Below, one piece after another: positions 22,072 to 49,300 of a stretch of DNA of 64,000 nucleotides; within the stretch, counting starts at the first letter, position 1; each line of letters begins with the position of its first letter. The notes beneath the pieces are model-generated. The model saw nothing but the letters and a program-made list of their open reading frames with translations. It did no database searches and had not been told where the DNA came from. Made by a program: the position numbers and the translations under genes. The DNA comes from Lingula anatina (Eukaryota > Animalia > Brachiopoda), in NCBI GenBank assembly GCA_051362555.1, contig CM120641.1:6138001-6202000 (forward strand), written 5' to 3'.

Positions 22072-24990
22072 ATGGCCCATCGTACATCTGCGGGAAAGCG
22101 ACGTGGTCATTCTCCAGACAAGGAAGGGGAGGGGGATTTTGATTTAAAATCAGAGGAGGGAAAGAGTGTACAGCCTCTTGAATTTCCACTACCAACTCTT
22201 TATGAAGCAAAAATGGACCGCCGGTATAAGAATGATACAGAAAGGGTGAGATTGTTGAAAGAAGGAAGCATTTAGTGATATTATTTTTAAATGAAAAGTT
22301 TGTTTCAATTTCAGTGTCTATAGTATTACAGCACATTTAAGGATGATATTTTATCATTTTCTACCCTGCCTACTCCCACAGATTGTCAAATAGTTGCTTA
22401 CTGCTTATTATTATTATTATTATTAGCTTGACTTATACCTAAATGTCTTTTATTTTTATTTTCTCAGAAAAATCTGTTACACAGGCTTGTGTATGTTGGC
22501 AAACTAAGAGAGGATTTCTGTAGCAGCCAAGAAGAAATTGGGCGTAAGTATTTTAAAAGGTCATCATATTTGCTTATAAACATATAACCCAATGGCTAGT
22601 AGGTGGATAAATCATTATAAGGCTATTAAATGAAGTCTATTCTAAAAAGATATTAAATTCATGTAATTAATGTAAACCTATTATTTAGCTATATTATCAA
22701 AATATGTTGGTCTTTTCCATTGCAGATTACTATGACAATTTTTTCAAAAATCTACACAATTCTCTGCAAGGGGAAGGGATTACTGGTTTATTACTGCTTT
22801 ATCCAAAGCACTGTGCTCATGTTGTGGAGGTACGTACATGTATGTCTGATTATATAAGTTTTTGGCTGTATATTTCATTGGTTTGTGGACGTCATACAGT
22901 TCTGTCTAAGACAAACATACTTGCTTAATTTTGAAAGATGATGTTATTCAAGAAAAGATTATAGTTTGGCTGGTGCATGCTGTCTAATTTACATCTTATT
23001 TAATCTGACCCTGTTTACCTTGGAAGGTCTATTTTTTGGCACCATCTGAATTTATGTGAGGTTAAAATGCTTGACCCATCTCATGCCTTTTATTTATTTA
23101 TTTATTTTTTTTTTTTGCTTGATTATATTTACACAAATTCATTTATTTATCTACCTACCAATCTATCTTGTTACCTATTAACTTATTGATTACATCTGTT
23201 GATTTATTAGTATTTTAATATTAATAAAATGCTGTTCTTACTCCTCTTCTTATTGTCATAATTGTAATCACTAAGAGCAAATGGTATGGAGTATCGTGAT
23301 AGAAGGTACTGTCTTAAAAACAGTGATAATCCTTCAGTATGCTATCATTTGGTTATCTTGAATATAAAGTCCATTCATACAAATGTCTTTTGGCATTCGT
23401 GTGTAACAGAATACCTACAAAGAAACATTTTTATATCCTTTCAGACTTCTAATGAAAAGATCACAGAGGTTGTTAGAGATATGCAGAAAAGCATTGAGAA
23501 GCAAGAGGGACCTCTTGAGGCTGCCAAAATACTTGTTATTTCCCATGATATATCCTTTAATTAAAAAAAACCTAAAATCAATATATTTCAGACATTTTGG
23601 TGATATTTACAACCTTGTTTGATGAAGTTATTGCTTCAGTGGGTTAAAGTCACCAGTTAAGTCAACAAACACACTCATTTTAATGGACTTTTCAAAAAAG
23701 ACTGTGTTGACACAAGTGCCTACAATACTCTCAAAAATAGTTTTAAAATCTTGACATTAATATTTTCCTTAACAGTCAAACGTTCCAGAGAGACTCTACA
23801 ACCAGTGGACACACAAAATACTGGACATTAAGTCTGCAAATTTAGACTTGTATGAACCTAGTGAGGCAGCTGATAAACTAGTAACAGATATGTTGTCCCA
23901 GTTCCTCCATCTTGGTACCTATTTAGCAAAACAGCCAAAGGTGAGTTAAAGTCACCTTTAGTCTCAAAGTCTTATAGGGACTGTAGATACCCTAGTAGAC
24001 TTGCATGCACTTGATGTCTTTGTAAGAGCAGTACACTTGGGTTTTTCAAAATTTATTTGGGTGTTTCTTTTTTTAATAATTTTTTAAGAATGTTCACTTT
24101 CTTTGTATTTTCTTTCTACTAAACTTAATTGAGTTTTTCTTCTAAATCATAATAAATTGCAAATTAATATACACTATTTGTCTTTTCAGTTAAACTTTAA
24201 AAATGCACTAGATACACTTCACGAGAAAGTACCAGAGCATTTACCACAACAAGGTTGGTTATTTTTATTAATTTTACATAATTTACCTTATTTGGTGTTT
24301 TATAGGATATTTTATAAAACCCTATTACAATTTCAAATTCACATTTTCAGAAATGGACAAGTAGTGGATATACATTCAATAGAATACATCAGTTTATTTG
24401 GAAATACAATATCATGATTGATATGAATGACATTTTTTATCCATATTAATGCCTTTTTTTTTCAAATTATATATAATGTCTTTTTACAGATGTTATAAAT
24501 TATCTGGTAGAAAATGATACCACATGCATAAGCAAACCTGTGGAGTATCTTAATACTTACCAAAAACCCATCAAAGTTGTCTTGGATAGTGGTAAGAGGA
24601 AAAATGTCAAATCTTTTAAAATAGCTTACTACATGTACCAGTATACTTCACAAATGTAATATTTGTCAAACTTATGTGGCTTGATTGATATATTAAAAAC
24701 TTCAAGAATTTCTGTAAAACTTTGTAACAATAATAATAATAATAGTATGTTCCATATATGTAATATTTGTGAAATGAATGATTTCTAAGTCTTTGGTTGT
24801 AACATATGGATAAAAATGAAACAAGAACAGGTTAATCTCCTTTTTACATATCAGCACATAGACTTTTTTGGGCATTTTATTAAGTTGTATTGATTTAACT
24901 CATCCTAAAGCCATTAGTTAATAGCTGAGTGATTATTTTTTTCTAGAACTCACGTGGCCAATGCCTGTCAAGCTGTTTCCATACAACTAG
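22072..24990 (+). CDS. TEX47: Testis-expressed protein 47-like (C7orf62 family), 8 coding exons
   Basis: Exons 22072-22245, 22468-22543, 22726-22829, 23445-23549, 23782-23940, 24190-24253, 24490-24591 and 24947-24990 join in frame. Motifs: LLHRLVYVG, GITGLLLLYPKHCAHVVE, ILVISHDVPERLYNQW, VVLDSELTWPMP. Confidence 0.8.
23550..23781 (+). other. U12-type AT-AC minor-spliceosome intron
   Basis: 5' site ATATCCTTT at 23550, branch point TTCCTTAAC at 23765-23773, terminal AC at 23780-23781. Removing it restores the frame SHD|VPERLY. Confidence 0.92.
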
Positions 24991-26582
24991 TCTGGATGCA
25001 CGATAACCCATGATCACGTTTATCAGACAAAAGATAATTATTTGCCTATCTTGACTTCCTGAGACTTTGGTGGAAATAGGTGAACAACTGATAAATGACT
25101 TGCTTGTCACGGCAGGATATTCATTCCAGCAGTAATGATGCTAATCTTTTCATTCATTCATTCATTCATCCTACGGCCATCATTTGTGATGGCATTTTAC
25201 TCCCCCCCCCCTTAATTTTTCACTACATCAAGAAAAGTACAGAAGGCCATAAGGTTTGTTGAAAGATCCCCTCAAATAAGTTTAATGCTCACTATGTAAC
25301 ATTATTTCATTTGATTGTAAATTGATGATTTTAAAAAATACAAAATGTCAGGAGTGGACAGATGGGGGACTCTCTTCAAATTCAACTCAGCTGTTCAGTG
25401 GATTTGATTTATCTTTCCTTTGAATTTACTGTGAATGAAACAAACCATATTTATATATGTAATATATGGATATACAATATAAAATTGAAATATATACTTG
25501 TTGCCTGTGTAATATTTGTATGTATAAAAACAAAATAAAATATTTTTGATAAGCATAGTTAAATAATTTTGTTTCTGGGATTCAGTATTTTAGGAATGAT
25601 TGGAAATTAAGAAAAGAAAATTATTATGCTGATTGAAAATGGGCGGCACAACAGGCCCAAAACAAGGTGTGACAGAGTCTGCTGCCTGTGTGTGTGAATG
25701 AAGGTGAATACCATTTTATACTTCGACAGCTTTTTATAAAATCTTACATACACCTTAAAAATGATTTAATCCCTTAAATATTTTTTGTGAAGCATAACTG
25801 ATGTTGATATTTCCATTGGAGCTTATAAGAAAATGGTCGCTGTTATAATGACTGGCCAGTCAGAGGGATGGCTAAATGATTAGGAGAAGAAATTGCTTAT
25901 TTTCCCGGAAAATCCATTTTGGTGGGTAACTCTGATGGCGTGTACCTTTAATCTATCTACCAGAACAGAAATAAATTGAATTTTAATACCCCAGATGAAA
26001 ACTCAAACATGCATTGACATAAAAAAAAGCAGTACTAGTAGGACTCGGTGTCAAACAATGTTTCACCGATGTGTTGAATTCAGTCGGGTTATTGAGATAA
26101 AGCAATTTTTCACAGCTAGGTAATACGCTTGGTGATACTCTTAATGAAAATTGCAAGAATGATTGATTGATCTAAAAGCACACCTTAACGTTTTGCAACA
26201 TGCTCAATTGATTAATTTATTGAGCCTGTCCCAGCACTGCTCACGTGCATTTGTGTGTGTGAGAGAGGAGATACGACACGTGACTGACTTCGGAAAACAG
26301 GTATGGTGCATTTTCAGCCCTTGCAGTGATCCGAGCTGAGCCAGATGGGTCGACCCGCAGGTGCTTGCATTGTGAACTTCATCATGGACAACATTATCGA
26401 AATGTAAATGTTATAGAAATACATGTTATAAGCAAGAAACAGTAACGTGTTGGCTTTGTAACTCAAATTTAATAACGATGGCAATACACGGGTAGTAGAG
26501 TCAAAAGCAATGATGATAATGATCGGGAGCGTCCATGTACGCAGTGAAATGTGAAGTCTCAATAAAACCACGCATCACTATC

Positions 26583-26595
26583 CAGGGGCGGGTCC

Positions 26596-26631
<36 letters not shown>

Positions 26632-26881
26632 CTAATGACAGCTAGGGCTCGGATGCGAAGCCGTCCCTCGACCCATTGGCATGGGGTTCGGAGCTCGCTT
26701 AGGGGCCCCGAAAACTTCGGGTGTTTTGGAAAGCAAACGTTGCCTAAGTACGGTTTAGAACTACGGTTCAGCTAGTCAAAGTTCTAATTTCAAGAGGGAT
26801 ATTGGTGTTTTTTTTTGTTTTTTTTTTTCAGAAACCGATGGGGGGTGGGCAGGGGGTCCCCTCCCACCGAAATCCGCCACT
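26583..26881. mobile_element. MITE-like element CAGGGGCGG...ATCCGCCACT
   Basis: GC-rich insert with imperfect TIRs and internal poly-T. Its end resembles the 21082 element. Confidence 0.5.
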
Positions 26882-28921
26882 AACTATCCTCCTCCACAGA
26901 GGAGATTATTGATTACCAGCAGTTTTGCAGAAATGAAGAAAAGAAATCCGACAGACCAGTTCTTAGAGTGATGATTATCACTTTCAGTGATAAGGACAGC
27001 GTCATCTTCTATTAATGCGTATTTATAAAAATGAAAATGATAAATCGGCAGTAATCAATTCATAAAGAAGACATTTTGTTTCCACTCTGCAGTCAAACCA
27101 AATAGATATCAATTATTGTTGTTGTTTTGAATTTGTCTTTTGTAATATGATTATATGACGCACAAGGTTAAATGTCAGGAATGAAGAACACGTTGCACAC
27201 CTTGCACGAGTAAGATCAATATCAAACTGATGCGCAACTCGTTTCTGGTATTTGACTATTTATGCTACTGTAGCCAGTTCAAACGCTAGTGAGACAGCCT
27301 CAAGATATATTTATTACAAAAAAAGAACGCGCGGAAGTGGAATATTACGCGATTTTGACAGTAAGTATTGTCGAATAGCATGTAGCTAATTATTGTTTCT
27401 TTGTAAACATCATTGGGTGCTTTTCTGGCTTCTTGAAAATATTTTTTCTTTTTCATCTAGAACAAAGATCGTTTAACTTGTGACAGTTACGGTGATTTGT
27501 TTTTAAAGGTAAATCACATGAATACGCATTAGAAAATGTTTTTAAGTCGTATTTTTATATTTAGATACCATGTAAAGAGCCTACCTTTCTCAATTCAAAA
27601 CCCTCAAATGAAAGAATCTCATGTCTATAATTCATTATGAAATGCCAGAAAGACTCTGGCGGCTTAATGTCTGGCCAAATATTTTAAATTAATTTATTTT
27701 TAAATTAGAAATATCGAATTTTAGTGCAGGGACGGGTCAAGCAATGATTCTTGTAAAGGAGAAAATTAGATTTGACGCGAAACATAATTCTAAATATTAA
27801 CTGGCAACGGTTTTATCAAATCAAATTTATTAATATTTCTCTCTATTTTAATTAAAATTATGATATTCTAACAGGGGATCGGGGTTGGGAATTAAGCAGT
27901 CATATTGTGAGTGCACCTACCGGGTACACACTGACATGTACATGCACTGGTAGGTTGTGCAAAGCCTCCTAACACTATTACCACTACCAAGTTTTATCTT
28001 CAGATGCTTATGGTGACAACTAAAAATGAACATCAACTGAATTCACAAGGTCTTCATCCTAAGTACCTGGAAACTCGTCTGTCTACTACCAGAGACTTGC
28101 TGAATGTAGAGACGCGGTTTTACAGTATCCGATAATACTTAGGGTGGTGCATGACCTTTCTCCTTTGTGTGAAATATTGAACGTTATATATCTAAAACTT
28201 TGGTTTCAGATAAGCCCATACACGAACAAGTATACTGAAGCATAGTCTACCGCAGTTGGCCAGGAATATACAGAGTAGTGACTGGGTGGGTTGGCTACCG
28301 TGGAGGTAAACGCAGACATGGGATGCGGAACTAGTACAGACTGCCATAAAAATACGATCCGCCCCTATGACACACGCCAGCTCCTGTCTGATTTGATCGT
28401 TATACAGACAGCATTTTTAACATCGCCTGAACCAAGTACAACAAAGGAAAAAGAAGCTTTGGTCGACTCAAACAATCATAACGGCCACTACCAAAATAGA
28501 ACAAACTTACATTACAGACTAGGGAAAGAGACTACGAAGGCAGAGTTATTTACAAAATCTGTTGGAGAACACACTGGATTTATAGAAAAGAACACACAGT
28601 TTATTATGTAAATAAAAATGGTTATAGAGATCCAGAATACCGGCTGGGAACAGTGATGAAGTGAAAATAGTGTTTAAAACAAGTTGCTTCATATTTTGAA
28701 GTGCAGGTGTTGTCAGTAAAGGGTTTGCTCTATTATCATAAATTACGTAAGAACTTAAAAGTGTTAGATCACTGATTAAAAATATTCATGCCCCGTGTGC
28801 CCTATGTATGCCCTGTGTGTCAAGTCTAAGCAGAATGTAAAGTCACATGTATGTTTAAGTCTCTAACGCAGGCGTTGCAAGTCAAATTTTGCACAGCAGG
28901 TGAGCGACCATGTGAGTGACA

Positions 28922-29851
28922 ATGCCTCGTCCCATATGCCAGAGAAGAGCTTGGCAAATAGTGGGGATGTGTTGTTTACATTGGAATTGCTCAAGGAACC
29001 GTCTGTAAAATCCAACAACGGTTTTGCACAAATCACGATGTGCAGTCAGGCACCACTACAAGTCGTTCTTGTAAAAATACAGTCAGGGAATGTCGTATCT
29101 TCTGCAAGATGTATCGTCAAAAGAGATCATTGTCAGCACATTGTCTGCGGAATAGTGTAAAAACAATAAGCCGAGTTTCCAGAGGATCAGTCAAAAGCAG
29201 ACTTTTGATTCGTGGCCTGGGCCATGGTGAACTCATAGGATTTTTTTTTTTTTACCATGAAAAGAAAGAACCGCCGCTAGGAATGTACCCGACATTGCCG
29301 TGAAATGCTTCACTGGAGGCATATGTCTGGTTTTCTGATGAAGCAAGATTTCCTATTCGCGGCATTGTCAGCAGACCCCATGCTTCATCTCAGGTTTGGA
29401 AGAGATTAGCTGGAGACCGTGAGATGGGAACTGTTGCCCACAGTGGTGGTTCTGTCCACCTTTGGACTGTCATTCCTTATGAACTTTGAACCAGTGTGGG
29501 GTTTCTCAGCGAAAGTTCTGGAAACATTTTGGCCGTACCTTTTTTATTACAACATGGCAATGGGCCATCTCAATTTGATCGCAGAAGAAAACAATTCTTC
29601 AGTGACCAAGAAATTGAGCAAGTTGACTGGGCTGTTTTTTTTCTGCTTTGAATCCAATGGAGCACTGTTAGGATGGTCTAGACCGTACTGTAAGGAGGAG
29701 AGAGGTCTAGCCGACTAGACGAGATGGGATGAAACAGACCTTCTTGTCGAGGGGTGGGTTAATCTGAGCCAACAAGCTCCAGAAACTGGTTAAGTCAGTA
29801 CCTCGTAGAATAGATGACGTCATCTGGGTTTGTGGCAGCTACCCGAGATAA
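28922..29851 (+). pseudogene. Decayed Tc1/mariner transposase
   Basis: Tc1 motifs appear in order across frameshifts and stops: RAWQIVGM, RVSRGSVKSRLLIRGL, VWFSDEARF..QVWKR, TVAHSGGSVHLW (cf. TVKHGGGSVMVW), FLLQHGNGPSQ (cf. FQQDNAPxH), ALNPMEHC*DGLDRTVR (cf. SPDLNPIEHLW), PRRIDDVI..GSYPR*. Confidence 0.85.
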
Positions 29852-31024
29852 TTACACTGTGAATGGTATAGCATTACCTTTGGGTGATACTTCTTTTTTC
29901 CTTTAATCCTTGCTTTCTTGAACATAACATTTGCTTTTCTCTATAAATTACTGATAATTCAACAAATTTATAATTTATCACTAGGAAGTACCAAGACGAA
30001 AAATATCCACAAATATACTGTAATTTGAAGATAGATCATGGGATTATAATAAAACACTAATGAGCTGGTTGTAAGTTACATTTTGTCTTAGTTTGAACAT
30101 ATTGAAATCGTAGATGCAATAACCTTTTGGAATATTCCATTATTTTTAGCAAGAGTGCACTTCCTTTCAATATACATGTTTTATTGGCGCGTTTGACAGC
30201 ATTATAATAAAAAGCCTGGATACAGATGCCTGTTTCTGTATTATTCATAAAACAAAGTTCTTAAACACACATGGAAGACAAAACAGCTATTTAATCTACA
30301 TTAACTAACGGGGACCATCCGAAATAACCATAGGCTTGCAACAGCGTTAAATCAAGCGGGATGTTTTATTTATTTACTTATTTATTTATTTATTTATTTA
30401 TTTTTATTAATTTTTTTTTTTGGGGGGGGGGGGTTGAGCCAGAAATAATGTAGAGAGCAGTAAGGCAACAAATTAAAGCTAACAGATTTTATTCACGGAT
30501 ATTTTTAGAGTTGCATTCTTTAAAGTTCTGTTACATAACAGTACAAATTCGCCATATTTAGCGTTTGATTTTCGTATTGCCACCTTGTATCTTAGACAAT
30601 ATTCCTGACACAGAATTTCACAGTCAGGTTCACCCTTATCGCTGACAAATTATTGGAATAACGAAAAAATGGCATTAAAACAGATTGCAACCCTTTAACG
30701 AAATGTCTATTTTTGCTTTCGTAGTTTTTTATCTTTGTAACTATCAGTAACAATTCAGCCCACATGCATCAGGATAATCTACTCGTTAAATACTTAATGA
30801 TGGTAATTACAATGGCATTTACGAATCCCAGGGTTTAAATTAAGGCGACAAATATCTGATTAATCTGATTAATAACGTGTGTGGCAAAGTAGTGTCTTTG
30901 TAATTTGCTTTGTTAACCTTTAAAATGTGCTGTATAGTCTGCGTGCATTACGCCATTAAGCAAATTTTGCGTCTTATAAACACGTAAGTAGGAGACTAAT
31001 CACTGAGAAAAATAAAAATGTGAT

Positions 31025-31873: not shown

Positions 31874-34800
31874 ATGTGGAAGATGGCTAAAATCACGGTA
31901 AGGTGTGAAGTTTAAATGCCTTGCGCAAACCAAGACTTTATGACGAATCAAAATTAACGATAATAAGTGGTCTTATCACGTATCCGTTTTGTTCCAGGTA
32001 TTTTGCATACTTGGGTGGATGTTGAAGATACAGGACAGTGTTCACGGTAAGTTTTGTCAAAATATAAGAAAATAATATAGTAAAAGATAAACACAGCTAG
32101 GTGAATCGGTAAGTTTTTTATAGAACCAAACGTGAGTAGTGATATTATGTACGAGGAGGCACAAGTAGATGCATTTTTCTCATTTTCAACTTTTCGTTTT
32201 CGATCCGCCATTACACCTTTGTGGATCGAACTACGCCATATAAAATCAATTTCACATTCAAGTGGCGGTTACTAAAGAAGAATGCAATGAGCCTGTGATA
32301 TGCAGAATAATACCGCTTACAATCTATCGAAACTCTGGCATTTATTTCCAAAAATATGACCAAAAGCATTATTCGTCTTCAGATACGTACACCAAGAAGT
32401 GTTAAATGTACTTTGTTGTTTGTTGCCACATCGGTACGGAAAACTAAACTACTTAACACGAGTTAAAATCGTACACTTTGTCACTTTAATTCTTTGCCAA
32501 TAGGTCTTGGGCTCTTTCACCCTGAACACCGAACACATTCTTACATATTTCTTATGCAAAACGAACAAATACAATTTTATACAGCAAAAAAAGCACATGC
32601 AATGATGTGGAAAAGAAGCAAAGTTAACAACAAAGAGAGGGTTTAAAGTTTTATTTATAATATCCTTTTTTACGTATTTTATTGATAAGTAACAATTTTA
32701 ATGAACTTCTTTGAATTTTAAATGCAGTAGCACGGGTTTTAGTCTCTCATAACCCTCAGCAGGGTGGGTTTTATTTATTTAAAACGTGAGACGTTAATAA
32801 AATTATTATTATTATTATTATTATTATTCACCCTGAACACCGAACACACGCTGTCTGTATCATTTAATAAATGTGTTGTTTATGTATCACAGGCAATGGG
32901 TGCCCCAAGCAATGGGAGCCGAATGGTGTGCACTGCTACAGAATATTCCAGGGAGTCAAAACCTTTACAAATGCAGAGAACTTCTGCCAGACCACTGTTA
33001 GCGGAGGAACGCTGGCTGAATTAGACGATTCACAGAAAAACATGTTCATTGGATCAATGGCGTCAGTATATTAAATTCAAAAATGCCTACAGCGCCTGCA
33101 GTATTTTAAAGCCTAAATCACGAATTACTAATACCAATGTGACGGTATTTTCTTAATGCTCATCAATTGCGAATTCCAAATGGAAATTTTTGTTTTATTA
33201 AAAAAAAATGGGCTTTTTGCATTTCTTTTTACCTTTTTAGAGATTGATATTTATGCATTCCCGGTGTCCACATCGTTCAGATACTATAATTTAGATAGTA
33301 TCACGAACATCTTAATGGTTACCCAACACATACCGTGTTTGATCATAGGATGCACTTTCATATTTGAATCGTGGTTCTATTCTAAAGGTATAAGCACCTC
33401 TTTGGTGTCTCACTGTCATTTGTTCTTTGAAGTAAGTCTTAACGTATTCTGTAGATTACACTCTTTAATGTCTCAGATCTGGGTATGGCACAGCCAACTT
33501 CTGGATTGGACTCAAACGACAAAGTGGCACCTGGACGTGGGTCGGAGGGTCAGCAGCGACTTTTACCTTCTGGAACGCATGGCACAACAAGCCGGACGCC
33601 AATGGAGATTGTACCAAACTGGTCACCGGGGGATTCTGGGAAAATACAGGTTGCAGTAATATGCTGCCTTTTATATGCCAAGTCGGGGCTAGTAAGTGCG
33701 TTTTTATACTTCTAGGTGTGTACATCTCACACAAGCATTACATAAAGTGGGATAAGCAAAACGCGTTATAAATTTGCTGAAGAATATATAGTGCAGGTGT
33801 ACTGTTATAAGTTATGAGTAAGGTCAGCTTACGTGTATATACTACCCAAAATATTACGGACCTAATGGAATAAAGTTAACTGTATTTCAAAGAAAAATAA
33901 TACGATACTGCCTTCTTAACCCATACCCTGAAAAAATTTACTAAAATGAAAGGAAATGAGATTTTTCTACATATCCTATACCATTCAAACCGCAAATAGG
34001 GTAGTTCTTATACTACTATATGATTTAATCTTTGCTTGACTGGCGACTTTACTGTAGATTAAACGGCAGTAGCAACAATTTGATTTTTATTGAGGAATCT
34101 GCTCGTTTTCTTGAGGTTGCCCACCGTTGCCAAATAACCAGCACTCCACATTTGACGTTAACGCCACCAGCGTCGGTGCGGTAGTTACGTATACGTGCAA
34201 TCAGGCCGGATATTTCTATCTCAACTCAACTGATACTGCCCGCACTTATCTTTGTGATAATTCTGGCGAGTGGAATGACACTTTCATAGATTGCGCTAGT
34301 AAGTTATTGCTTCTTGGAATCTCATTTCATTACGACAATACTGATCAATTATTATGACAATGATTTCAGTAGACTTATATTTTGAATCATGTTCCATTAG
34401 TAAGATGATCTTAAGATCGTTGAAGCCAATGAACAAACCCTAATTAAAAATGATTAAAAGAACAAACGAATGAAATGAAGAATATAATACCACGAATTAA
34501 TTAGATATCCGGGTGTCTTTCAGCCTGTGCTCCATTCGACACCGTGGAGCAGTCAACATCCAGAAACCTCAACCCTACAACGGTCGAATATACCTGCAAC
34601 TCCGGCTACATGTTCTCTGATGCTGCCGAAACCAAGGTTGTCGAATGTCAACCAGATGGACAATGGAATGATACACTAGGCAACTGTACAGGTATGGGAC
34701 GCAATATTACCTTTCCATATAAAATTAGACTTTTTACGCTCAATCGGCAAAATGTCAGCAAAAAAAATCAGTATAGGCCATTTTGCTGCCAGAATGTATT

Positions 34801-37800
34801 AATGTAAAGATATTGTTATGATGATTGATAGAGACCAAAATTGTAGTATTTTAATTTAAAAAACAGACTTACTGGGCATTTTCGAGCTTAGTATTTGTTC
34901 TTCTTCCAAGAAAATTGAAAATACAATGGAGGGTAGTAAATGCTATTTGCTTCAAAATGCGTTATTATTGCTCCTTTTAGTTGCTTTTTTCTTGACATTT
35001 CTTGGTATTAAACGGGTTGATATGCGTTTCTGTAAAAATTGCTGTGCTGTCACAACAAGTGCGTATCCAGATTTGTTTTGACAAATCTCTGTATATATCT
35101 TAAAAATATGATTTTATAATATAGATTTTTGTATTTGGTATATTTATATATGTTTCAGAAAAACCTTGTCCTGCTGTACCGCCGGTGACGAACGCATACA
35201 CAGATACTAATACAACAACCCAAGGGACTGTGGTGACACTGACGTGCCAGCCTGGGTTCTTGTATCCTGATGGTACTAATAGTAAAACAGTCACCTGTCA
35301 AAGTGACTCTACCTGGACCGCCATGCCTGCATCGTGTGCAGGTAAGAAAGACTTTGGGTGCCGCTGGGCGGCTAAGGGATTAAAAAAAGTATATAGTATG
35401 TAGTGCGAAATTTCATTTCTTTAACAAAGACTTAGATTTGTGATTTTTTTCCGAAACAGTTCAGCTTAAAATACTAACGCTCATTAGAAATATATATATC
35501 TTATGAAACTTGTGATTTTCCTGTTGACATTGACCGTGTCATAATTTAAACTCATGCTTTATCACTATACACGAAATTTTCTTCTTTATTCTGTGCTATT
35601 TCCAGCCCTGTCCTGTCCGAATACACTCCCAAGTATCCAGTTAGGCCGTACATTGGACAACGATCTTACTGTATACAGCACTGTCACCTACTACTGTTAT
35701 TTTGGCTACGAATTTCCTGACGGCAGTACCACGAAACAAATGACCTGTCAGTCAGACATGTCATGGAGCAATGCCATCACTGATAACTGTCAAAGTAATT
35801 ATTTTCATGCAATTTGATATATATACGTTACCCTACATCTATAAGCCAATAATGGCAAAGACATGACGGTGATGAGGTAAACCCCTCCCATCCTCGTCCT
35901 GTGTTTCAGAGGGCGCTGGAAACACACGTCTACCACGGGCATGTAGTGCCCAGCATTCTCTGCAACTCAGGGCATCAACTCAGTGTGTCTATTCTGGTAG
36001 CCAAAAAGAAATCTGCATACATATTGAGTTCAACCTAGTGCCTATAGTTCTCTCATTGATTGGAGCTCACCAAGTATCCCTAAGTAATATAAGCGTGAAT
36101 ATCACTGCGAGGTGAAAAAGGGAGGGTGCAATCAAGTAGAAGCAATATGTTACTTCTGACATTTGAATGTGCATCTCAGTTAATTATAAAGAAGGAGCTA
36201 GAAAACACTGATAACACGTGTCACGAAACGTGAAATGCAGAATCCGTATGAAGATCGTGATGATTGTTCGCAACCTACTTTTTAAAATGTATATTGGGAA
36301 TTCTTTACAAATCAACAAAGATAGATTAAAGGTAGTCCTTCCTACCGAAGACAAAAGTACAAAGCTTTCCGTAAAAAATAAATACATATAAAAATATTTT
36401 TTAGAAAATGTCATCTGATTCATCTTTTTTTTTATTTCCAGAAAAGACCTGCCCCAACACTCCCCCTATCAACAACACCATTATTGTTGCCAATGACACC
36501 GGGTATGGTGGCGAAGTAGAGTACCAGTGTGTGGGAAATATGCGTTTCCCTGACGACCAAACAACACACAAACTGACATCGTGTACATATGGCAAGACTT
36601 GGTCACCAGATCCTAGCGGGTTCCCGCCTTGTGAAGGTAACAACGAACTAAGTTCCAGTATTTTAGGGAATATTTCACTTCTTAGTTGTACGAAGGAGAT
36701 ACATGAGATACGATTCCTTATTTATACCTGTTCTCTATTTCTCTCTCGTGTTTCGACGGTTCAAATTCTAAACTCGGAACATTGCGTGAGCTCTTTTAGC
36801 ATGTGCCATAATATTCTGGGAATTTCCTGTTACGTCTCTAAAACTCAAGAAAAACGAATGGAAGGAATAAAAGAGTTTCGAAATGTACTTAATAATCACA
36901 AGACATAACCTGTAGTCGTTCAAGGAGGATTTTTTATTTCCTCGAAAAAAAGTATTAAACATTTCTAGGCATTTAGCACTCTTTGCTTTATCAGAAAAAA
37001 AGTAGCGAATGTACATATATTATATTATATTATATTATATTATATTATATTATATTATATTGTACAGTATATACATTTACGAACTGAGAGAGAAAAGGAT
37101 ACATCTAACCGTGGCATTCCTTCATTTTACAGTGATCACAGGACCGTGCAGTGGCCTGCCTGTACTTCCAGATCGGGCATTTTTAGACACAAACAGCACG
37201 GCCTCGGGGACAATAGCCACCGTGTCCACAGAAGCTGGCTTCAAGTTCCAAGACGGTACATTCTTCAAGACCATTATATGTAAAGACGGGGGATGGAATT
37301 TTACAATGATTCGTACAACCGGTGAGAAAATTTAGTTCAATATCTTATTCTTCTTTAATGAACATTGTTGATTTCTTTATGGAATTTTACGGAAAAGGAC
37401 ACATACCATACTTGCTTGATGATGATTACACTTGATATTGGGATCACGTCTTTGAAAATGCCCTCGTAGTGTCAGTTTATCTTACAAACTCTCATGTTAC
37501 ATTTAACATTTTAAAGGCCTAAGTTTACTACAGTTGGATAAAAAATTGTTTGAAGGTAAATTAGACGAATTTCGACAGAAATACTGAAAACAAACTTTTT
37601 CTTGCAGTGGTAGATTGCACTCAAGAGCCATCGGTGAAAAACGCCACGAGATTTGGAAGCGGCATCCTTTATGGAACACAACTAACCTATTTCTGTGACA
37701 ACGGGACGGTCTTTGTAGATGGTAGCACTGAGAGAATCACATACTGCAATCGATATGGAATATGGGCGCCGCAAATTACTGACTGTGAAGGTAATTAACG

Positions 37801-38540
37801 AAATTAATTAATAAGAAAAATCATCTTAACTTTATATGACTTTAATGAAAAAAAATTTAAAATGAGAAGCATTGTTCATATGATTATATTTTGTTTCATT
37901 AAAGAAAATAAATAAACCCTTGATGCTGAAATTTTGTATTTGAAAATGGTGAAACACCAATGCCTTTCTTTTGCATTAATGAAATTGCAAGGCTCATGCG
38001 TGAACGGTAGGAAATTGTTGCAGAAGTGATATCTTTCATTAAATTATGAACACGTTACATTTTTATTTTCCAGGTAGTGCAATCACAGTACAAAAGAAAA
38101 TTCCGAAACCCGTACCTGTAGAAGCTAAAACAGAGGTGGTGGTAGCGGTGACAACGCCCCCTTTCGTTATCTGTGGCGTTCTTATTGGTGGAGTAATTTT
38201 GCTAGACCTCGCCACTATTGGAAGACACCTAGCAAAGATGGCAGAAAATCTGAAACATTTCACCAATCGACTGAGAGGCCTTCCTCCCCCGAAAAAAACG
38301 AAAAAGAAAAGGGACGGCCCGCCCCCTACTTGCGATAATTGTGGCGATTCTCATGAAACGGAGAAATGTCCCAGATGCAAATACTGTATGGAAGAGACTC
38401 ATAAATCGGAAAAATGTCCCCTAGCTAAAACTTATTGTAAAAAGTGCACTTATTATGGTCATATCGTAACCGAATGTCGAGAGGTTCACAAACTTTTGGC
38501 TAAATTGTCCAAAGAAATGCACGACGAGCTTGTTGGATAG
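31874..38540 (+). CDS. Type I membrane protein: signal peptide, C-type lectin domain, 7 sushi/CCP modules, TM helix, cytoplasmic tail with 3 CCHC zinc knuckles (~737 aa)
   Basis: Exons 31874-31897, 31998-32046, 32893-33061, 33477-33691, 34116-34298, 34524-34691, 35159-35341, 35606-35794, 36442-36636, 37133-37321, 37608-37790 and 38074-38540 are phase-consistent. CTLD: CPKQW..HCY..AENFC..LA, FWIGL, W..TGC..LPFIC. Each CCP module sits on its own phase-1 exon. TM segment: FVICGVLIGGVILLDL. Confidence 0.85.
32516..32848 (+). mobile_element. Possible retroposed insertion: ~290 bp ending in (ATT)n, flanked by 22-bp direct repeats
   Basis: TTCACCCTGAACACCGAACACA at 32516 and 32827. The (ATT)n run abuts the second copy. 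Confidence 0.5.
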
Positions 38541-40033
38541 ATTAATTTTTTCCCATTTTATTACTAAAAACATACGCTACGATATGAACTTATTGTATCT
38601 GTGATCTGTGATATTTTAGCACTTGTATATATTTTCTTTCTTTTTTTGAACAAAATGAAAATTAAAGGACTCAAGATTTCAAAGGGAACTCCCCACTTGT
38701 ACTTCAGCACTTGGCTTCTTGGAATTCTTAGAACACATTTTATTCTCTACCCATAATAAGGCAGTGTTTATATCTAAAAGCTACTAACAAATTCCTGATT
38801 CATGGTTTACATATACATGACCGTCAAAGTCTGTGACATAAAAAATCGAAAATTTGAAGATAAAGGGGCATTTTGGGGCAAAATACTGCACGTAGGGGAT
38901 CATAATTGCACTTTCAATATTTTCACCTATGTCAACGTGTATCCTTACTTATTAAAATCACTAATATATTTCCAATCACGTGTTTGTATCATTCTTTTTT
39001 CGTGATCAAGATAACTTATCATCTGTGACCATTGTGTGAACTCAACTTTTTTTTCTTACAACAGAAATTTTCATGGTATCAAACATGAAATATTTGAATC
39101 AAATAAAGCTCAAGGATAACACGATGCAAAAGGTCAGATCCTTAGGCCTTTAACCAATTTGCTGGAAGTGGTGTAATGAAAAGTTAGGGAAGTTATAAAC
39201 ATTCCTTATTTAGTGCACACTGTATACAGGGATTTATCTACAGACTGTTAAACGCGTTTGGCACCAAATGGACATAACAGCTAGAAACTTAATATTACTC
39301 CCTTAGTTTTATGAACTATCCACAGAACATTGATGTGCCAAAGACAATGTCATTACCTATAGTAATGTGAGAAATAATTTCAAATTGTGGATCTTGAGAA
39401 ATTAAAAGTTTGACGACCTGCATTGAACATACTTGACTGCCTATTAATCGACTTAATTTTTCTTTTTTTTTTCTATATTATGAAATAAACAACTTGTTGA
39501 AATAATAAATTTTTATTTATAAAAGAACAAGTTATGATATAAAAATAGCAACAACATACTCTAATACAACATTGCATTTTGGATACTATAAATTCAATTG
39601 CAAAATATCTGGAAGAAAACAAAATAATCAAGCCATGATTGAAGATTGGCAGGATTTGATTTTTTCTAAATACCTGGCGTAATTACTGGATGAACAAATT
39701 AATTCATTAACTGAAGCATTCATTTATTAAATCATAACTGTCATGCACCATTCAATGTAAATGAAAACGGTTTCTAAAGAACTATTTTAAGATAAATTGT
39801 CCTCTAAATCCTATATATTCTTTCCTCATATCTTCATTTTCTTTATAACAATCTGCATGATCAATTTATTTATCAACATCCCATGTCCAATGAAAAACAT
39901 TGCCATCAAAGATGTTTAAATCCAAATCTCATTCTCCTTTGAATAAAATATATCTACATTTCAGTCCTCTGTCATTTCCCCTCCAAACGTTACAAAGTCT
40001 CTACACCAAGCTCTTGTATTACTATTGAAGTTG

Positions 40034-42312
40034 CTAGCTTGGATTACAACTCAAACAGAATGGTCTTTCCAGGATGTCATCATAACTGAAAAGACAAATT
40101 GAGCAATGTTATCTCACCAAGATTAAAACTTCCTTACTTTAATTTCCTAGAAACACTACCCGTTAAAACCTCCCTTACAGTACCAATCTGTCTTAAATAA
40201 AAATTTTATTAAATTAACTTCTTAAAAAGATGTAACCTGCTTATTATGATTAGCACTTACTTTAATACTGAGCACAGCTGGCAAAATTTCCCCTGGCAAT
40301 AGGTGCATGTTCTGACACACATTGCACACACAGGCTTATCACAGAAGTGACAGGGTTGCAGGGTAGGCTCCATGGATTTTGTACAAGATATGCATGTTGC
40401 TGCTACAGGGGTATGTGGTCGAGGAACTACAAAGAACAAAGAATTATTAGTTTTATCAAGATGATGCTTAATAATAAAACCCCCCTTTTTTTCAGTAAAT
40501 AAACATAAACATCAAAATCTAGTAAAGCTTAAAAATGAACCGACAGTAATAAAACCTGCAACAAGTTTTTAATCGAACCTTTGTCACTGTAGGATCATAA
40601 AACCCATTGAATCATAGTGATACTGATAGCAAATTGATAGTAGTTAAAGAGCACACACCTTGAGTAAAAAGACTGGAGAATGCAGATTGATGATTTGGCA
40701 TTTTGCTCATTTGTTGTTCTGCAGACACATGTCCATTACTGAGACTTCTGAACTCCATGCATTTCTGTGGCTCATTTCCACTCATATTGCACAAATTGTT
40801 GTTAATAGATTGCTGGACATGAAAGTTCAGTTTTTGTTGACCAGCAATTGGGCAAGAAAGACCAGTGCCAATGTCCATCATTTCTTGATCCTCTTGTATT
40901 GCAGGTAAGGGTGTGTCCCCTGGTAATGGTGCATTGTAGATACCTTTGTATGCAGCACTAAACAACAGACTCCTCGTCTTTTCTGAAGTGAAACAAAACT
41001 GAATTTAAAATTGTTACAAATATCATACCATGGAGTAGTTTGCTATGTGTATCGAGTTATAGTGTAGTGTTACCACTTTCAAGAGTAGCAGCTCATGCTT
41101 TAGCAAGTTAATATTTATATTTTGCCATATTTACTATTAGTGCTTACATGGAAGATATCAATATAGATAAGTTCAATATACTGAGTCTGCACCAATGCAG
41201 ACGGTTCTCAAATCTTTCTCCTTATGCTTACTTCCTAAGTTTTACAAAGCCAACTGATATTATTGAGAGTGATGTGAAAAGGGTTCATCTGCCTTTTAGC
41301 AATTATATGACACAGAATTCATACATCTGAAGAAGACCACAGTTAAAGAGTTCTGAATGAATAGGCCAGATAATGTTCCTTGCCAAAAAAACAAGTTACT
41401 ATGAAGAATTGTACATTGAATGCAAGTTACTTGGCCCAGGTTATCTTGGGACACAAATTCAAGTTCGCCACTCTGGTGTTTAGTAGATTAAATGGTACCA
41501 ATTTGTTAGCTGAATACCAACAGCTACCTATGATACCAGTTTCATTAGTGCATAAGCACAAAAAACTTACCAAAAAACATATATAAAAGCAATCATGTTG
41601 AAGACTTAACTGACCAAGGAACAAACTAATAGGCACAATCATGTACATAAAGTTCTTTGGCCCACAGTTTTAGAGTTGGTGAAGGTAGACCCGGGCTTTA
41701 TAGCTCAGTGGTAGAGCATTCACATGATAAGGGAGCATCCTGTTTTAGATTCCCTGTCAAGTCAGGTATTTTCCCCAAAAAATACTACATTTTGTCCGCC
41801 CCATTTTGCTTCAGGACAGAATACAATCCTCGACTTACTCCTCACACTCTTGAGTACCTTAATGGTTATCTTTAGCCAGTGTATGATTTCTTTGAAGATA
41901 AGAAGACATTTTTTTCACAACGCTGTCAATGGCAAGACTAGTTGGCTTTACAGCAGCAAGCGGCTTGAGGTGAGAGGTAATCAAAAGATGTGAGAGCTCC
42001 CAGATGCACTTATCTGAGTCGCTAGCTGACCGTCATTCCACAGTTGTGACCACCTTTATCTTGGTACATGTACTTCATATGAGGAACCATAAATAGCCGC
42101 GTTAACACATTAAACTTTACCGTCCAATTTATACTAGACTGTGACACATAGGTGTAGATGAAGTAGGTCCAGTAAATTAAATAAACTCTCTTACCATAAA
42201 CTTTCTTCATATTTTCCTCTCTGTTTATTCCCATATCAACGTTTTTCTGGTGCACTACAGTTTTAAACTGCAATGGAGACGCATCCCCAAACGGATTTGG
42301 ACGTTTCGGCAT
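40034..42312 (-). CDS. SIVA1: Apoptosis regulatory protein Siva, 4 exons
   Basis: MPKRPNPFGDASPLQFKTVVHQKNVDMG..MKKVY|EKTRSLLFSAA. C-terminal Cys cluster CISC..PCHFCDKPVCAMCVRTCTYCQGKFCQLCSVL|NYDDILERPFCLSC. Stop at 40034-40036. Confidence 0.9.
41693..41790 (+). mobile_element. tRNA-derived SINE head or tRNA pseudogene in SIVA1 intron 1
   Basis: A-box TAGCTCAGTGGTAGAGC is intact. The B-box is degenerate (GTTTTAGATTCC) and there is no proper cloverleaf. Confidence 0.6.
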
Positions 42313-42657: not shown

Positions 42658-45600
42658 ATGGCCACTATCTTGGAACTGGTTTTAGAGGAGAAAGTTTTAC
42701 CATTTACTGTTGTGCGTTGGCTAGCAAAAAAGGCTCATCAGGTAAAGTGAAAAAATACATTTAATTTCGGCAATGGAGGTTTGTTCTAAAAAGTGCAAAT
42801 GACCACTAACTTTTAAAAAGTCGCGTTGAAAATATCAACTTTTGCTGTGACAGTGTTTTACCTGGACTGGCTGCAGCATATGTGATATATTATAATTTTA
42901 ATGAATGGTATTGTGGAGCAGACTTGTTTCCTTTTTATTTTCATTTATTAAATAAAAAACAGCATGATAAAAACTTAATTTCGAAACACCTTGTCGTTAA
43001 ATACAAAAACTGATTTGACTTGCATTGCAGAATTAATATTTTTAATTTTTTCTAAAATAAAATTTCAGTGGGTTTCAGTTGTATTTTACGTAAATGCATT
43101 TTATATTTAGGCTGAAAATCTAGATGAGCTAGAGCGTGAGAGGTCCGAATTTATTCCATTCTTCCTGAACTACCTTCGAGATAAGACAGTGCATTTGCTA
43201 CAAAACAATAAATCAGCATGTCCTTCTCCAGCTAAAACACCAACCAGTTTTCAGAACAAACAAAAACCAGCTCCAAAGGTTGGAAACAAGAGCAAGGAAA
43301 GGAATAATTCTTCTAAGCGGGTACAGTTGTTTTCAGTTGGTCCAACCTCAGATAGGCAGAAGACATCGCCCAGTGCCTTTGAACTTGCCAACACCTCTCT
43401 AGACTCTCCTCATATCAACAGATCCTTTGGATCATCAGCTAAGAAGGAAACCTTTGCGAAAGACACTGTCAGTGGTTTAGAGTTCAGAAGATTAGATGAC
43501 TCAAATGCTTCTTTTGATAACCCATCTGTATTCAAAGGACAAGAGGAACATAATAGCCCAGAGGTGTATGGAAAGCGAAATAAAAATTCTCGCTCCACTC
43601 CAGTACACAGCACTCCAGATTCTTATTCCAGATCAAAGCATAAACACTCTTTAGGCGACTTTCTCATTAGTCCAGAAACAGAAGGTAGAAAGAAGAAAAG
43701 TCCCTTTTCTGGAAACAGAAATAATAATAATAATGAGAACAGTCCCTCTCCAGTATCTCAGAGACGTTCAGGAGGTAAAGGGAAATCTCATAAACAAAGA
43801 TACAGTGATGTAGATCGTAACCCACCAAAACTGCCTGGGTTCAGTTTAACTGATGCTGAGGACTTCCCAACTTTGACCTGTAATAGTCAGTCACAAAGGT
43901 ATTATTATACCATATTATGGTTATTGCAGTGAGTTGTTACAGATAGTGTAGTCTTGCCAGAATGAGTTGTACAACTCGTGGTTGGGTTTAAAATTTGTAA
44001 ATGATTCACGGGGGTTTAAACATGGTACCCAACAACTTTTTAGCAAAGTTTAAGACTTTGTATATTTTTTCTTAAACAACATCATTAAAGATTTATAGAA
44101 ATATCATATTATTCCAAGAAACAGTTCAGTTGAAGCACTGAAAGAGACATTATATGTCATAAAGAAGGATATGCAAATATTTTGTACTTTTTTTTCAGTA
44201 AGCCGAGGAGGATCACCCCTACTCCTGTGAATCAGGATGTCAAAAGAGCCACAAACACACTGTTCACCAGTGCTCCAGCACTTAGTCCAGTCAAAGAGAA
44301 AGAAAAAGAAAAGAATGCTGGACCAAGAAGAGTTCCACTTCTTAAACTGGATGACTTCAGGGAGTCATTAAAGTAATTACAAAATCAAAACAATAAGTTA
44401 ATTGGTCTCTGTATTGTATTCTACCTCTTTACGTTTTTTTTTAATGCATTGACTAGATAATAAAATTATTAAAAATGCTTTTTATTCTTGATTAATTAAT
44501 CTAAACATTTTATAAGTCAAATGTTGTCTGTGTAATGCATTTATATGTAAGATGTAAATTTTTATACCTGTTTGAACTATGTATGAACTGTGTTTAAGCA
44601 AGTTCAGGAATAAGACACGTGTGTATTTCAGAGAAGAGAATGCAAAGAGAAATGAAGTTGCCAGCAATGGAACTGAGTGCAATACATTTACCACTCCCAG
44701 CAAGTCAAGATCTGGAATAACCTCTTTCACTCCAAACAAAACACCAAGCAAATACTCCATGGAAAGACAGGCAAGCATAGTGGAGATAACTGTAGCTGAG
44801 CCATGTAATGTCACATTCAGAGATAAGCTTCATCTTATAGCTGAGGTGTATTCTGGGTGCTTGGAAGGTTTGTGTCTGTATCATTTTAATATTTTATAGA
44901 TTTTTCACTTGTCAATGAAACGTTGCATTAAATTATGTACAGATATATATGAGCTGTATTTGATAACATAGTTAAATTCTAATTGCTTTGGAGATTAATT
45001 TGTGAATATATTAATTTTTAATTGAATAGGTTATAGTTAGTGGAAAGGGATTTCCATATAAAGATTACTTAAAACTTTGATTTCAGAGCACCTGGTCCCT
45101 AGCATCACTGTAGAACTGTACTTCATCATGCAACTTCTCACTGCTAGAGGGGTGGATTTAGAGGTAGCAAAAAGCATGGGAAACTTGGGTGAGTCATGTA
45201 TTTCTTTAATCTTTAAAGTTGCTGTAAAGTTCTTTTCTTGAGACAGTTGGTGATTTATTATTGTATGTTTGGAAATAAAGACGAGGAAGTCAAGGTCAAG
45301 AGGTGTGTTTAGGTGCAGAGTATATAAAATTTTGTATGTAAAAAATGGTCACACTTGCATGTTTTATTTTAAATTAGTCAGATTCTCATTAATTACCAGA
45401 TCAATGATAAATTGGCACAAATGGTAATATCTGAAATAGTTTCAGCTTATTTCTTAAGTGAATTAGCTGTATTATTTGGCTCATATGTTAAAGGGTAACC
45501 AGGGGGTAACCCGAGTGATTTGTTGAAGTCCTTTTGATGAGGATGTATGGTTGGCCCCATTGTAGCACTTGTAAGAATGGTAATAGATTAAAAATTTATT

Positions 45601-46281
45601 TAAATATTGATATTTTGATTCTTATGCAAACACCATTGTTTTACAGATTGGGATGAGACCAGCTATTTCCATTCAGTACATAATGCAGTGTACTTTGCTG
45701 TGGTGGTTTTGGAATTACAAATCAGGTAGGAGTCAAGGTGCCTTTGCTATGGGTATATTTTACATCAAGTTATAGCTGAATTTGTTATAATTGTCCTAAA
45801 CTTAGCTTGTTGTTTGAGAAACATCAGAGAAAACACGTCAAGTGATGACAGTGAAGTTCTTTTGTACATAATTCAAAAACTGATACAGCTTGAAAGGTGA
45901 AGTTTACAGAGAAATATCAGATATCATCCAATGTAATGGAGCAATTCATCTGAATAATAACCCTCATATACCTTCTTGCTAGCTTTATGATGATATGGAA
46001 TGTTTGTTTTTTGTGTATTTTTTCTGACTGAAATATAACAACAAGAAAAGATAGAGGAAAGAAATTTTAAAGGAAAATGGAAAATAGTTCATTTTAATTC
46101 CAGACTCGTGCAGTATCTAGATAAAGGTACCTTAAAACTTCTGTCAGAAAACCAGAGGATAGAAGATTTTTCTGTTCAGCTGAAAACCCAGCTCACAAAT
46201 ATATATGAAGAGTCATCTGTTGAAGTAAGTAATGAATCTCTTACACTTGTTACTTTTATCACTACTTTGTTATTAATGTAT

Positions 46282-46320
<39 letters not shown>

Positions 46321-49300
46321 TTGACATTTGAGAGGTTTATTGGTAGCTGTATGATCGAGTATTTTCCAGGGTGTAAGAGTTATTTAATTTAGTGAATACA
46401 ACAATGAAGTTAAAAAAAAAATTGCAGGCAGAAGTCTGTGTGATTAAGTTGCCTTATTAAGATTTCATAAAAAGGATATTGTATTAAAATATCATCATAT
46501 CCATTGCAGCCTATGTCAGTATTCTATGCCTCCCCTATTGGAGGGGTGTCATTTCAAGTTGACACTGATAACAGGAAAAACTTTCCGAGTGATAAAGCTT
46601 TTCATTTATTCAAGAAACAAAGGTGAGAAAGATTTTTTTCTTACTCCAAAATAGTTATTTTTATTTTTAGTCTGTTTCATTTTTGACAGAGACTTACTGA
46701 ATTGTTAAACAATTTCACAGATCCAGTATTCTTTGCTTAGCACTTGAAAATGATTTTTATTGATTTAATAATTACATTCTTTGAATGATTTAAGGCACTT
46801 GAGCATTAAGAAAATGTTCTGTTATACATTGTTTTTGATATTAACCCAGAGACATATTCTATGAATTGGTACGTGAATGGGAAGAAAACCACCTAGATGT
46901 ATCCTGGTCACTGTCACAACTCCATGGACACCGGATACGCAGTCTGGTCAGCTGTCCAGTGGACTTGGTCAACCACATTCACTTTGCTAGGTTATTTCAA
47001 GCACAGCTCATTGCTGTAAGTAGTTGCCTTTGAAAAATTGTCAATCAGAATGTGTTCAAAATTTAGTTTTTGCTTTTTTATAGATCCGATGCTAACTTTT
47101 GGGTCAAAATATGAAGAGATAAGATATTCTTTACCAAAGCAATGATGAATTGCAGAAGCTGTTAATTATAGTTCATTTTCTTTACCTAGAATATGATTAA
47201 CATTGGGTAAAAGTTTGATACGTTATTTCTAGCATTAGTAGCGTCAGAGATTTCATTAAGTATTGTTTTGTACCGCAGTAAATAGTAGCGCAGGTACTGA
47301 ACAGTTGTTATTCTCTATTTGAGATGTGTAAAGGAGTGGGCACATTGAAATCACAGGATGAGGACACCAATATAGCCCTGTTGTCACAACTCAAAAGAAG
47401 TAACCCAGAAAAGTTTAAGAAGTAAGTTCATTTCTTGTTTGAAGTAAATATGACATATTTTATAAAATTTTATGATAGAAAATTCAGTTCGCAAGCAAAC
47501 CTTAGTAACAATGTTCTTTATATATGTGAAAGTGTGTTTTGAATATCTGACTGTCTTTAAATTTAGACTCCAGGAGCGTTTTACCACTCCCACCACACAC
47601 CTCGGTCCTTGCCCCCCACCCTCATTCCCAGGGTGTCAGGAATTCTTTAGAGACTTCATTGTAGCAGCAGAGAGTCATGTGTTTAACCAGCACTTGATTG
47701 ATGGAATGGCTGCCAAAATTAAGGAGGTTAGTGAAAATTACCAGACAATTTTGTCTTTTTCCTGTTGGATCAGTGGTATCTAAGGCTTCATTCACATGCA
47801 ATGTCTATTTTCTAAATTCTATTTTCTATTCGCGCTATCTTATGATCACGGTCTGTGCCCTGAATATCCCGCCGCGTAATTACTGGCAGCGCGAGCCAGT
47901 TACTTATAGTAACTTATAGTAACTGGCTCGCGCTGCCAGTAATTACGCCGCGGGATATTCAGGGCACAGACCATGATCATAAGACATACCGCGAATAGAA
48001 AATAGAATTTAGAAAATAGACATTGCATGTGAACGAAGCCTAACATTTTGATCTCAAATCGAACAATATAAAGCTTGCCTTACGAAAATGAAATATATTG
48101 TATTTCTTTTCTGCAAATTTATTGATGATTTATGTAAAAATAAAAACAAGGACTAAAGAATGAATTAGCGTTTTACAAATTTCATCAGAGAAAATAGTAT
48201 CAATGTGAAATTGGTTTTGAATTTTCCTCGAATTGTTGTTGGCTACTATAGATGAATTCTTGAGTTTGAATAATTATGGTATGATTGAAACATGCTTCAA
48301 ACACAACTTTTCCTTTGTTATAAAACATGATTTGTGTATAATCTGGACAAGGATCTAAGGTTTAATTTTATTATCACATTGCGTGATACTTTCTTTGTAG
48401 CTAATCAATTCCACATTATCTGACCATGAAGATGAAGTGGGGACTGAGACCAAGACTAATCAGGTACATATTGTACTATATCAATTAATGAGAATTATTG
48501 TATAATAGAAATATAAACATTTAAGAGATGTCTTCATATTTATCATTGTTATTATTATTACTATTATTATTATTTTGAATTCATTAAGTGGAAAGTCAAC
48601 ATTATGATAGTATTTGTTTATATTTTGTCCTTAATGAAATACTAAACTGATCATTCATAGATAAACAAACAGTATGTTTTTACTTGCAGCAAGATAAAGA
48701 TGTGTTCTCATCTTGTCTTTTGACATTGAGACTTCTTGGCAAGTTCCTTGGCTTTATTGTATTTTTACCATATCGGACTCCAGAGCCACTACCAGAAACT
48801 TTAGAAATGACTTATGTCGCTATGAGAAGCCAGGTAGGCAAGCTAAATTTTGAATTGAATTTTCAGCATGATCTTAACGTTTTGATACAGTTAAGTGATT
48901 AATGAAATGGGATAAAATGTGCTATATAAAGACTTTAAAGAAAAATTATTGAGAATTTTAAGTGTAAGTGTATTGGTGAGAACTTTGCTCAGTATATTTT
49001 AATAGATTAAGTACCTGTGATGTGCAAGTATTATGAATTGTAAAAAAAATGTGCTGATGCATAAGCTCATAAAAGCTTGTATATCTTTAATCTGTAGGTC
49101 CCTTGTCCACTGGATGTTTATCAAGAAATTCAGTTGGCCTGTGTTGAGGGGAGACTAGTCCTGACTGTACCCTGGGTGGTGGAATTTTTGAGCATGATGG
49201 ACAGCCTAGCACCAAGACTGCAGTACTATAGCAGTGTGTGCAAGCTGCTCATGCAGATTCATAGGTAAATTTAGACTGACTTTTACTGTTTGTTTGCCAC

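Follow-up and report, generated by a model that had tools for sequence, protein, structure and literature searches.

The analysed window, a 64-kb stretch of Lingula anatina DNA, contains between positions 31874 and 38540 twelve exons, all separated by GT-AG introns, which join into a single open frame of 737 residues. The encoded protein carries, in this order, a C-type lectin domain, seven sushi repeats, one predicted membrane helix and, in the last exon, three CCHC motifs. Exons 5-11 each encode one sushi repeat and are each entered in phase 1. The parts of the gene are as follows.

31874-31897, plus strand: exon 1, start codon and residues 1-8; N-terminus identical in RefSeq XP_013401853.1
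31998-32046, plus strand: exon 2, predicted hydrophobic core of a signal peptide (hydropathy 2.47 at residues 9-17, by hydropathy only)
32893-33061, plus strand: exon 3, first half of the C-type lectin domain (Lectin_C E 0.041 alone)
33477-33691, plus strand: exon 4, second half of the C-type lectin domain (E 1.3e-12), with Ca-site motif KPD, WEN
34116-34298, plus strand: exon 5, sushi 1 (E 7.1e-06)
34524-34691, plus strand: exon 6, sushi 2 (E 1.6e-06)
35159-35341, plus strand: exon 7, sushi 3 (E 2.3e-08)
35606-35794, plus strand: exon 8, sushi 4 (E 2.2e-05)
36442-36636, plus strand: exon 9, sushi 5 (E 0.0052, under the cut-off)
37133-37321, plus strand: exon 10, degenerate sushi 6, without Pfam match and aligned to the paralogue; RNA reads
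37608-37790, plus strand: exon 11, sushi 7 (E 0.018); RNA reads in 4/4 runs
38074-38540, plus strand: exon 12, stalk, membrane helix, entire cytoplasmic tail and stop codon; RNA reads in 4/4 runs
38541-39091 as a minimum extent, plus strand: 3' UTR, with few X5 reads to about 38740 and X4 reads into the bin 38828-39091

Pfam analysis of the 737-residue model returned Lectin_C (E 4.9e-18, 66.3 bits against a cut-off of 22.6) and Sushi (E 3.6e-21), and when the exons were scanned one by one, Sushi was matched by six of the seven sushi exons, four of them above the curated cut-off. The twelve-exon model, first drawn from the letters alone, was borne out by the RefSeq protein XP_013401853.1 (Lingula anatina, 737 residues), which is the same model and identical at 729 of 737 positions. 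None of the eight differing residues lies in the knuckles, which is little informative as these comprise 49 of the 737 residues. We regard the receptor gene and its architecture as almost certainly real. The RefSeq protein is named SVEP1, and its precomputed domains are Lectin_C and Sushi only, so that the knuckles are unannotated there. Identity with SVEP1 was not borne out, the vWA, EGF and pentraxin domains being absent at E values up to 1 (Pfam).

The following features were observed elsewhere in the window.

About 7105-12141, minus strand: coding exons, two of which were scanned with no Pfam match; resembling LIN54/tesmin
16182-17231, minus strand: open frame of 350 codons with ankyrin repeats and a G-patch domain, which we take to be GPANK1-like
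About 20612-24417, plus strand: exon matching the TEX47 domain (E 5.8e-06)
26000-30000: GC content up to 0.41-0.42 in three 1-kb bins and several frames of 60-110 codons without Pfam match; possibly a decayed element
40260-40511 and 40615-41004, minus strand: homologue of Siva, the CD27-binding protein (Pfam E 5.3e-07), lying downstream of the receptor gene in convergent orientation
About 43111-54676, plus strand: multi-exon codanin-1 homologue (Codanin-1_C, E 2.1e-15)
About 57975-62370, minus strand: Ras-domain exon upstream of further coding exons, a gene which we assume to resemble circularly permuted Ras protein 1

Transcription and relation to known lectin-sushi receptors

Seven of nine raw Lingula RNA runs were aligned, with about 6 to 30% of each run being read. 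Across the entire gene, 3, 5, 14 and 1 reads were obtained from four runs; many of these were only partial fits to a repeat in intron 2, and no read in these four runs supported the junctions of exons 1-9. The partly fitting reads fell at 32300-32900 in three of the four runs; a short stretch is present twice in this intron, near 32519 and 32829, and the region is likely a repeat remnant. The region 37090-38890 was covered in four runs by 25 reads, five of them partial fits, which lay sparsely over exons 10-12, the depth being zero in all eight wholly intronic bins in all four runs. No splice joint was listed over this region in the four runs because the listing threshold requires three reads per run. 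Joints were deduced from read depth. In run X9, four full reads of 150 bases contributed 41 bases to exon 10, 304 to exon 11 and 254 to exon 12, a pattern that requires one read over the joint of exons 10 and 11 and two over 37790-38074; in run X8, exon 11 received 160 bases and exon 12 received 140, which make up two reads, possibly mates from one molecule. This arithmetic implies that four reads, two from X9 and two from X8, span 37790-38074. The splice from 37790 to 38074 proposed by the sequence-only reading is thus backed by crossing reads deduced from depth, but not by a joint listed by the program. Its other proposal, a transcript running through 38540, is supported by reads that tile from within knuckle 2 to beyond the stop codon. 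Upstream of these, reads tile from the helix to knuckle 1, positions 38375-38399 being uncovered by the reconstruction.

In X5, X7 and X9 the first mate was found on the minus strand only, which fits plus-strand RNA in a stranded library; X8 showed pairs in both orientations. Reads of other individuals revealed eight coding differences in seven codons, five of them silent and two conservative: one Arg to Lys and one Leu to Ile, the latter provided that both changes in its codon occur on the same reads, for which their equal counts speak. Over the knuckles, too few reads were available to call differences.

Lectin-sushi receptors have been described as having short tails and signalling through adaptors. 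The protein was initially described as selectin-like, and this holds only loosely. It shares with the selectins the N-terminal C-type lectin domain, the tandem sushi repeats and one predicted membrane helix, and the P- and E-selectin clusters were among the nearest Atlas models, although with TM scores of only 0.27 and 0.25. However, selectins possess an EGF domain between lectin and sushi, whereas here exon 4 is followed by a sushi exon with no EGF match, and the tail of human L-selectin is 17 residues long according to the accessible part of PMC5820395, compared with 109 residues and three knuckles here. The furrowed/CTL-X protein TcCTL15 is likewise an invertebrate transmembrane lectin with many CCP repeats, and lectins of this type have adhesion and immune roles (PMC9954269, accessible part). 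That part of the paper describes a factor 5/8 domain and 11 CCPs in TcCTL15 and mentions no knuckle tail; the window protein, by contrast, lacks a factor 5/8 domain (Pfam) and has seven sushi repeats against about 11 CCPs. No furrowed protein was found by the whole-protein search at E 0.001. The usual Ca-site motifs of lectins, EPN/QPD and WND (PMC9954269, same part), read KPD/WEN in the window protein and EPD/WQD in the paralogue described below, so that a sugar site appears doubtful in the former and more canonical in the latter.

A triple zinc knuckle conserved in two receptor genes

The features of the last exon from the membrane helix onwards are given below.

38157-38210, plus strand: predicted transmembrane helix, about residues 611-628, with peak hydropathy 2.5 at 613-631
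38208-38273, plus strand: amphipathic juxtamembrane helix, residues 628-649, heptad pattern
38283-38312, plus strand: proline and polybasic patch, residues 653-662
38331-38369, plus strand: knuckle 1, CX2CX3HX4C
38376-38417, plus strand: knuckle 2, CX2CX4HX4C
38436-38477, plus strand: knuckle 3, CX2CX4HX4C, with the most conserved surface

A transmembrane helix followed in one last-exon frame by three CX2CX3-4HX4C motifs was the central claim of the sequence-only reading, and it was confirmed at 38331-38477, the motifs starting 40 residues past the helix in the same exon and open frame. The pattern C-X2-C-X3-4-H-X4-C has no other match in the six frames of the 64-kb window, and at least two such motifs occurred in none of 20000 shuffles of the exon 12 protein. 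The claim of a single membrane helix also held, as judged by hydropathy alone, the exon 12 helix being the sole region of the protein with a 19-residue hydropathy above 1.6. The hydrophobic N-terminus, the distribution of N-glycosylation sequons (12 before the helix, none after it) and the 23 basic residues of the 109-residue tail point to a type I topology.

The knuckles score under the Pfam cut-off (16.4 bits against 27); PF00098 gave no match to the window's protein and reached 18.5 bits in the paralogue against a cut-off of 20.8 (Pfam). Because the module is under the cut-off in both genes, it is invisible to standard annotation. The three knuckles are putative zinc binders. AlphaFold2, run with two sequences, gave a mean pLDDT of 51, with values below 50 over the knuckles.

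A second Lingula anatina gene, XP_013421366.1, was found with E 3.9e-31 by HMMER among 1.84 billion representatives and lies on a contig of another length. Its product comprises a lectin domain, seven sushi repeats, a helix, a basic patch and three canonical knuckles, followed by a long acidic tail, and is 32% identical to the window protein over 744 columns. Identity is distributed unevenly: 165/557 in the ectodomain, 16/28 in the stalk, 19/26 in the juxtamembrane helix and 22/49 in the knuckles. All 12 zinc-ligand positions are kept, and the knuckle linkers have 2 and 6 residues in both paralogues. The remaining knuckle residues are identical at 10 of 37 positions, about the level of the ectodomain, and seven of these ten fall in the last linker and knuckle 3. 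The spacing CX2CX4HX4C is found in all three knuckles of the paralogue and in two of three here, the spacer from the second Cys to the His in knuckle 1 being three residues long, against four in the paralogue. In sushi 6, Thr stands at both Cys positions of one disulfide in the window gene and Cys in the paralogue; this paired loss fits selection on a folded protein. Since the same layout, ligands and linkers occur in a paralogue of 32% identity, the architecture is old and maintained and no accident of annotation. With the knuckles conserved in this way, a motif arisen by chance is excluded and a recent passenger very improbable; the proposal that the knuckles are part of the receptor is supported.

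The most conserved element under the membrane is the juxtamembrane helix (residues 625-650, with the 19 of 26 identical residues given above). Its hydrophobic moment exceeds that of all 2000 shuffles, and its heptad a/d core positions are identical between the paralogues in seven of seven cases. Conceivable roles for the helix are contact with the bilayer surface, coiled-coil formation and partner binding; a homodimer prediction for the membrane and juxtamembrane helices gave no answer (score 0.02). A lysine-rich basic patch precedes the knuckles in both paralogues, with six basic residues in each linker. In the RefSeq model the cytoplasmic tail of the paralogue exceeds 600 residues; its predicted part at positions 729-1277, some 550 residues, is acidic and rich in proline and repeats a motif of the type PTxSPVPPPR.

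No relative of the tail was found outside Lingula in the protein, metagenome and viral collections searched. The last-exon search returned a single protein, XP_013401853.1 (1 of 434 candidates). HMMER on the 1.84 billion representatives gave six matches, namely both Lingula proteins plus four weak matches, of which three were generic knuckle arrays and one was a protein of 110 residues without the motif. Of 7988 candidates scored in the tail search, five matched with E values no higher than 10; in metagenome and viral contigs the tail was found in 0 of 283 and 0 of 70 stretches, Atlas models searched by features gave no usable match, and the whole-protein search found one sea-urchin lectin only, spanning 17% of the length. 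The receptor architecture is apparently lineage-restricted so far, to two genes of one brachiopod species, which limits its reach. The openly searchable full text contained no description of a receptor combining lectin, sushi, transmembrane helix and knuckles, nor of the accession numbers of either gene. The accessible parts of a survey of metazoan C-type lectins (PMC10140915) and of a Lingula shell proteomics paper (PMC13425148), each with one supplement, contain neither knuckles nor these accessions. The supposition that no such receptor had been described thus agrees with the literature searched, and a lectin-sushi receptor with a triple knuckle tail is an apparently undescribed architecture, the tail being a new intracellular module for this receptor class.

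Possible roles of the knuckle tail

The best solved match of the two-sequence profile was yeast Air2 (E 6.3e-07), the Gag nucleocapsid reaching 0.0038 and CLIP-170 0.18, and knuckle 3 aligns with the last knuckle of Air2. The Air2 match is not specific, as a control protein with an ORF1-like sequence, P0013, likewise matches Air2 first. An aromatic residue after the first Cys is used for base-stacking in nucleocapsid knuckles; it is present in none of the six knuckles of the two paralogues, and is missing also from knuckles 1-4 of Air2 in the alignments. The knuckle region of both proteins has eight basic and eight acidic residues and thus a net charge of zero. Closely spaced CCHC knuckles are shared with Air1/Air2 of the TRAMP complex and with arrays of the CNBP/GIS2 type; these are, however, soluble proteins with 5-7 knuckles, whereas here three knuckles follow a predicted membrane helix. 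In Air2, RNA is bound by knuckles 2-4 and the protein Trf4 by knuckle 5 (PMC3384339, accessible part).

The reading that we prefer, with a probability of roughly 45%, combines an ectodomain for surface ligands with a knuckle tail of split function that docks a ribonucleoprotein. The lectin-and-sushi ectodomain would bind a surface ligand, the sushi stalk keeping the lectin head distant from the membrane as the sushi stalk of selectins does (PMC5820395, accessible part). Clustering driven by the ligand would then be relayed by the amphipathic helix conserved beneath the membrane. The triple knuckle would serve as a docking site for a ribonucleoprotein in the cytoplasm, dividing its tasks as Air2 does: the basic patch and knuckles 1-2 would contact RNA and knuckle 3 would bind protein. 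Taken together, the Air2 and CLIP-170 matches, the neutral charge, the missing aromatic residue and the lysine-rich patch favour such a split role over protein binding only. The evidence is nevertheless mixed, and protein binding by the knuckles seems about as likely as RNA binding. A more far-reaching proposal, that this receptor family binds RNA directly through its own knuckles and that meeting a glycan or an adjacent cell on the outside would capture or release specific RNAs, host mRNA or viral, at the membrane, is tentative, and we consider it rather improbable. If RNA binding were true, recognition at the surface would be coupled directly to the control of RNA, and one chain would perform the tasks that TLR3 and ZCCHC3 divide between them. 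ZCCHC3, whose three C-terminal knuckles bind dsRNA and DNA and which assists the transmembrane receptor TLR3 (PMC10351740, accessible part), is the nearest functional analogy, although it is a separate soluble protein.

The knuckles could instead be a docking module for protein only, comparable to that of CLIP-170, which would attach the receptor to cytoskeletal or trafficking proteins and bind no nucleic acid. This would still be a new use of the knuckle, of narrower interest. Tight arrays of three knuckles adjoining a basic patch are mostly nucleic-acid binders, which counts against such a role. Taken per stretch, the best match of knuckle 3 alone is nevertheless the CLIP-170 knuckle (16.6 bits, E 0.043), with which it has in common a Tyr preceding Cys 1 of the motif and an aromatic residue before Gly-His, whereas in the four alignments shown a nucleocapsid knuckle reached at most 10.4 bits. 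The net charge of zero and the clustering of conserved non-ligand residues in the last linker and knuckle 3 point in the same direction, but CLIP-170 is matched only weakly (sequence E 0.039, profile E 0.18). CLIP-170 is a soluble microtubule-tip protein with two knuckles, as opposed to three on a predicted membrane receptor here; p150Glued, LIS1 and the N-terminus of CLIP-170 itself are the ligands of its knuckles (PMC2172020, accessible part). Docking to protein only is possible, yet less likely than the split role.

Release of the tail by proteolysis at the membrane, followed by nuclear entry, appears considerably less probable still; in this reading the proline-polybasic patch would direct import and the knuckles would act on RNA inside the nucleus. 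The basic patch is kept in both paralogues, but binding to acidic lipids would explain a basic patch near the membrane equally well. Conservation is unusually high in the extracellular stalk, as might be expected of a cleavage site, and L-selectin is shed near the membrane (PMC5820395, accessible part). The confidence left over from the readings discussed here goes to other roles, which may include lipid binding.

That the knuckles are a mere passenger, through recent read-through of a retroelement at the gene end or an artefact of gene prediction, is largely refuted and very improbable: low RNA depth and the alignment of P0013 to the knuckles could speak for it, but the array keeps all ligands and spacings in the paralogue, reads tile the exon as described above, and none of the picked window frames matched such an element, as detailed next.

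Origin of the tail

Remnants of Gag, ORF1 or reverse transcriptase were found by Pfam in none of 34 picked open reading frames of the window. Eight of these frames were located within intron 8 or immediately downstream, and 13 upstream. By tblastn, P0013, which we take to be a LINE ORF1-like protein and to which Pfam assigns zf-CCHC only, matched the window nowhere except at the knuckles. A single exon, uninterrupted from the helix to the knuckles, encodes both, which would fit a read-through into an inserted element. Ancient capture of a retroelement followed by domestication is conceivable, though we think it the less probable course. The ranking of Air2 as best PDB match had been considered as a case against a retroelement origin and was dropped, since P0013 also matches Air2 first. 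In the profile comparison, a seven-knuckle protein of cellular type, P0012, and the ORF1-like P0013 reached about equal probabilities of 96.1% and 92.5%, both having been pre-selected by shared words and giving E values in the database search (0.12 and 2.6) that are not significant.
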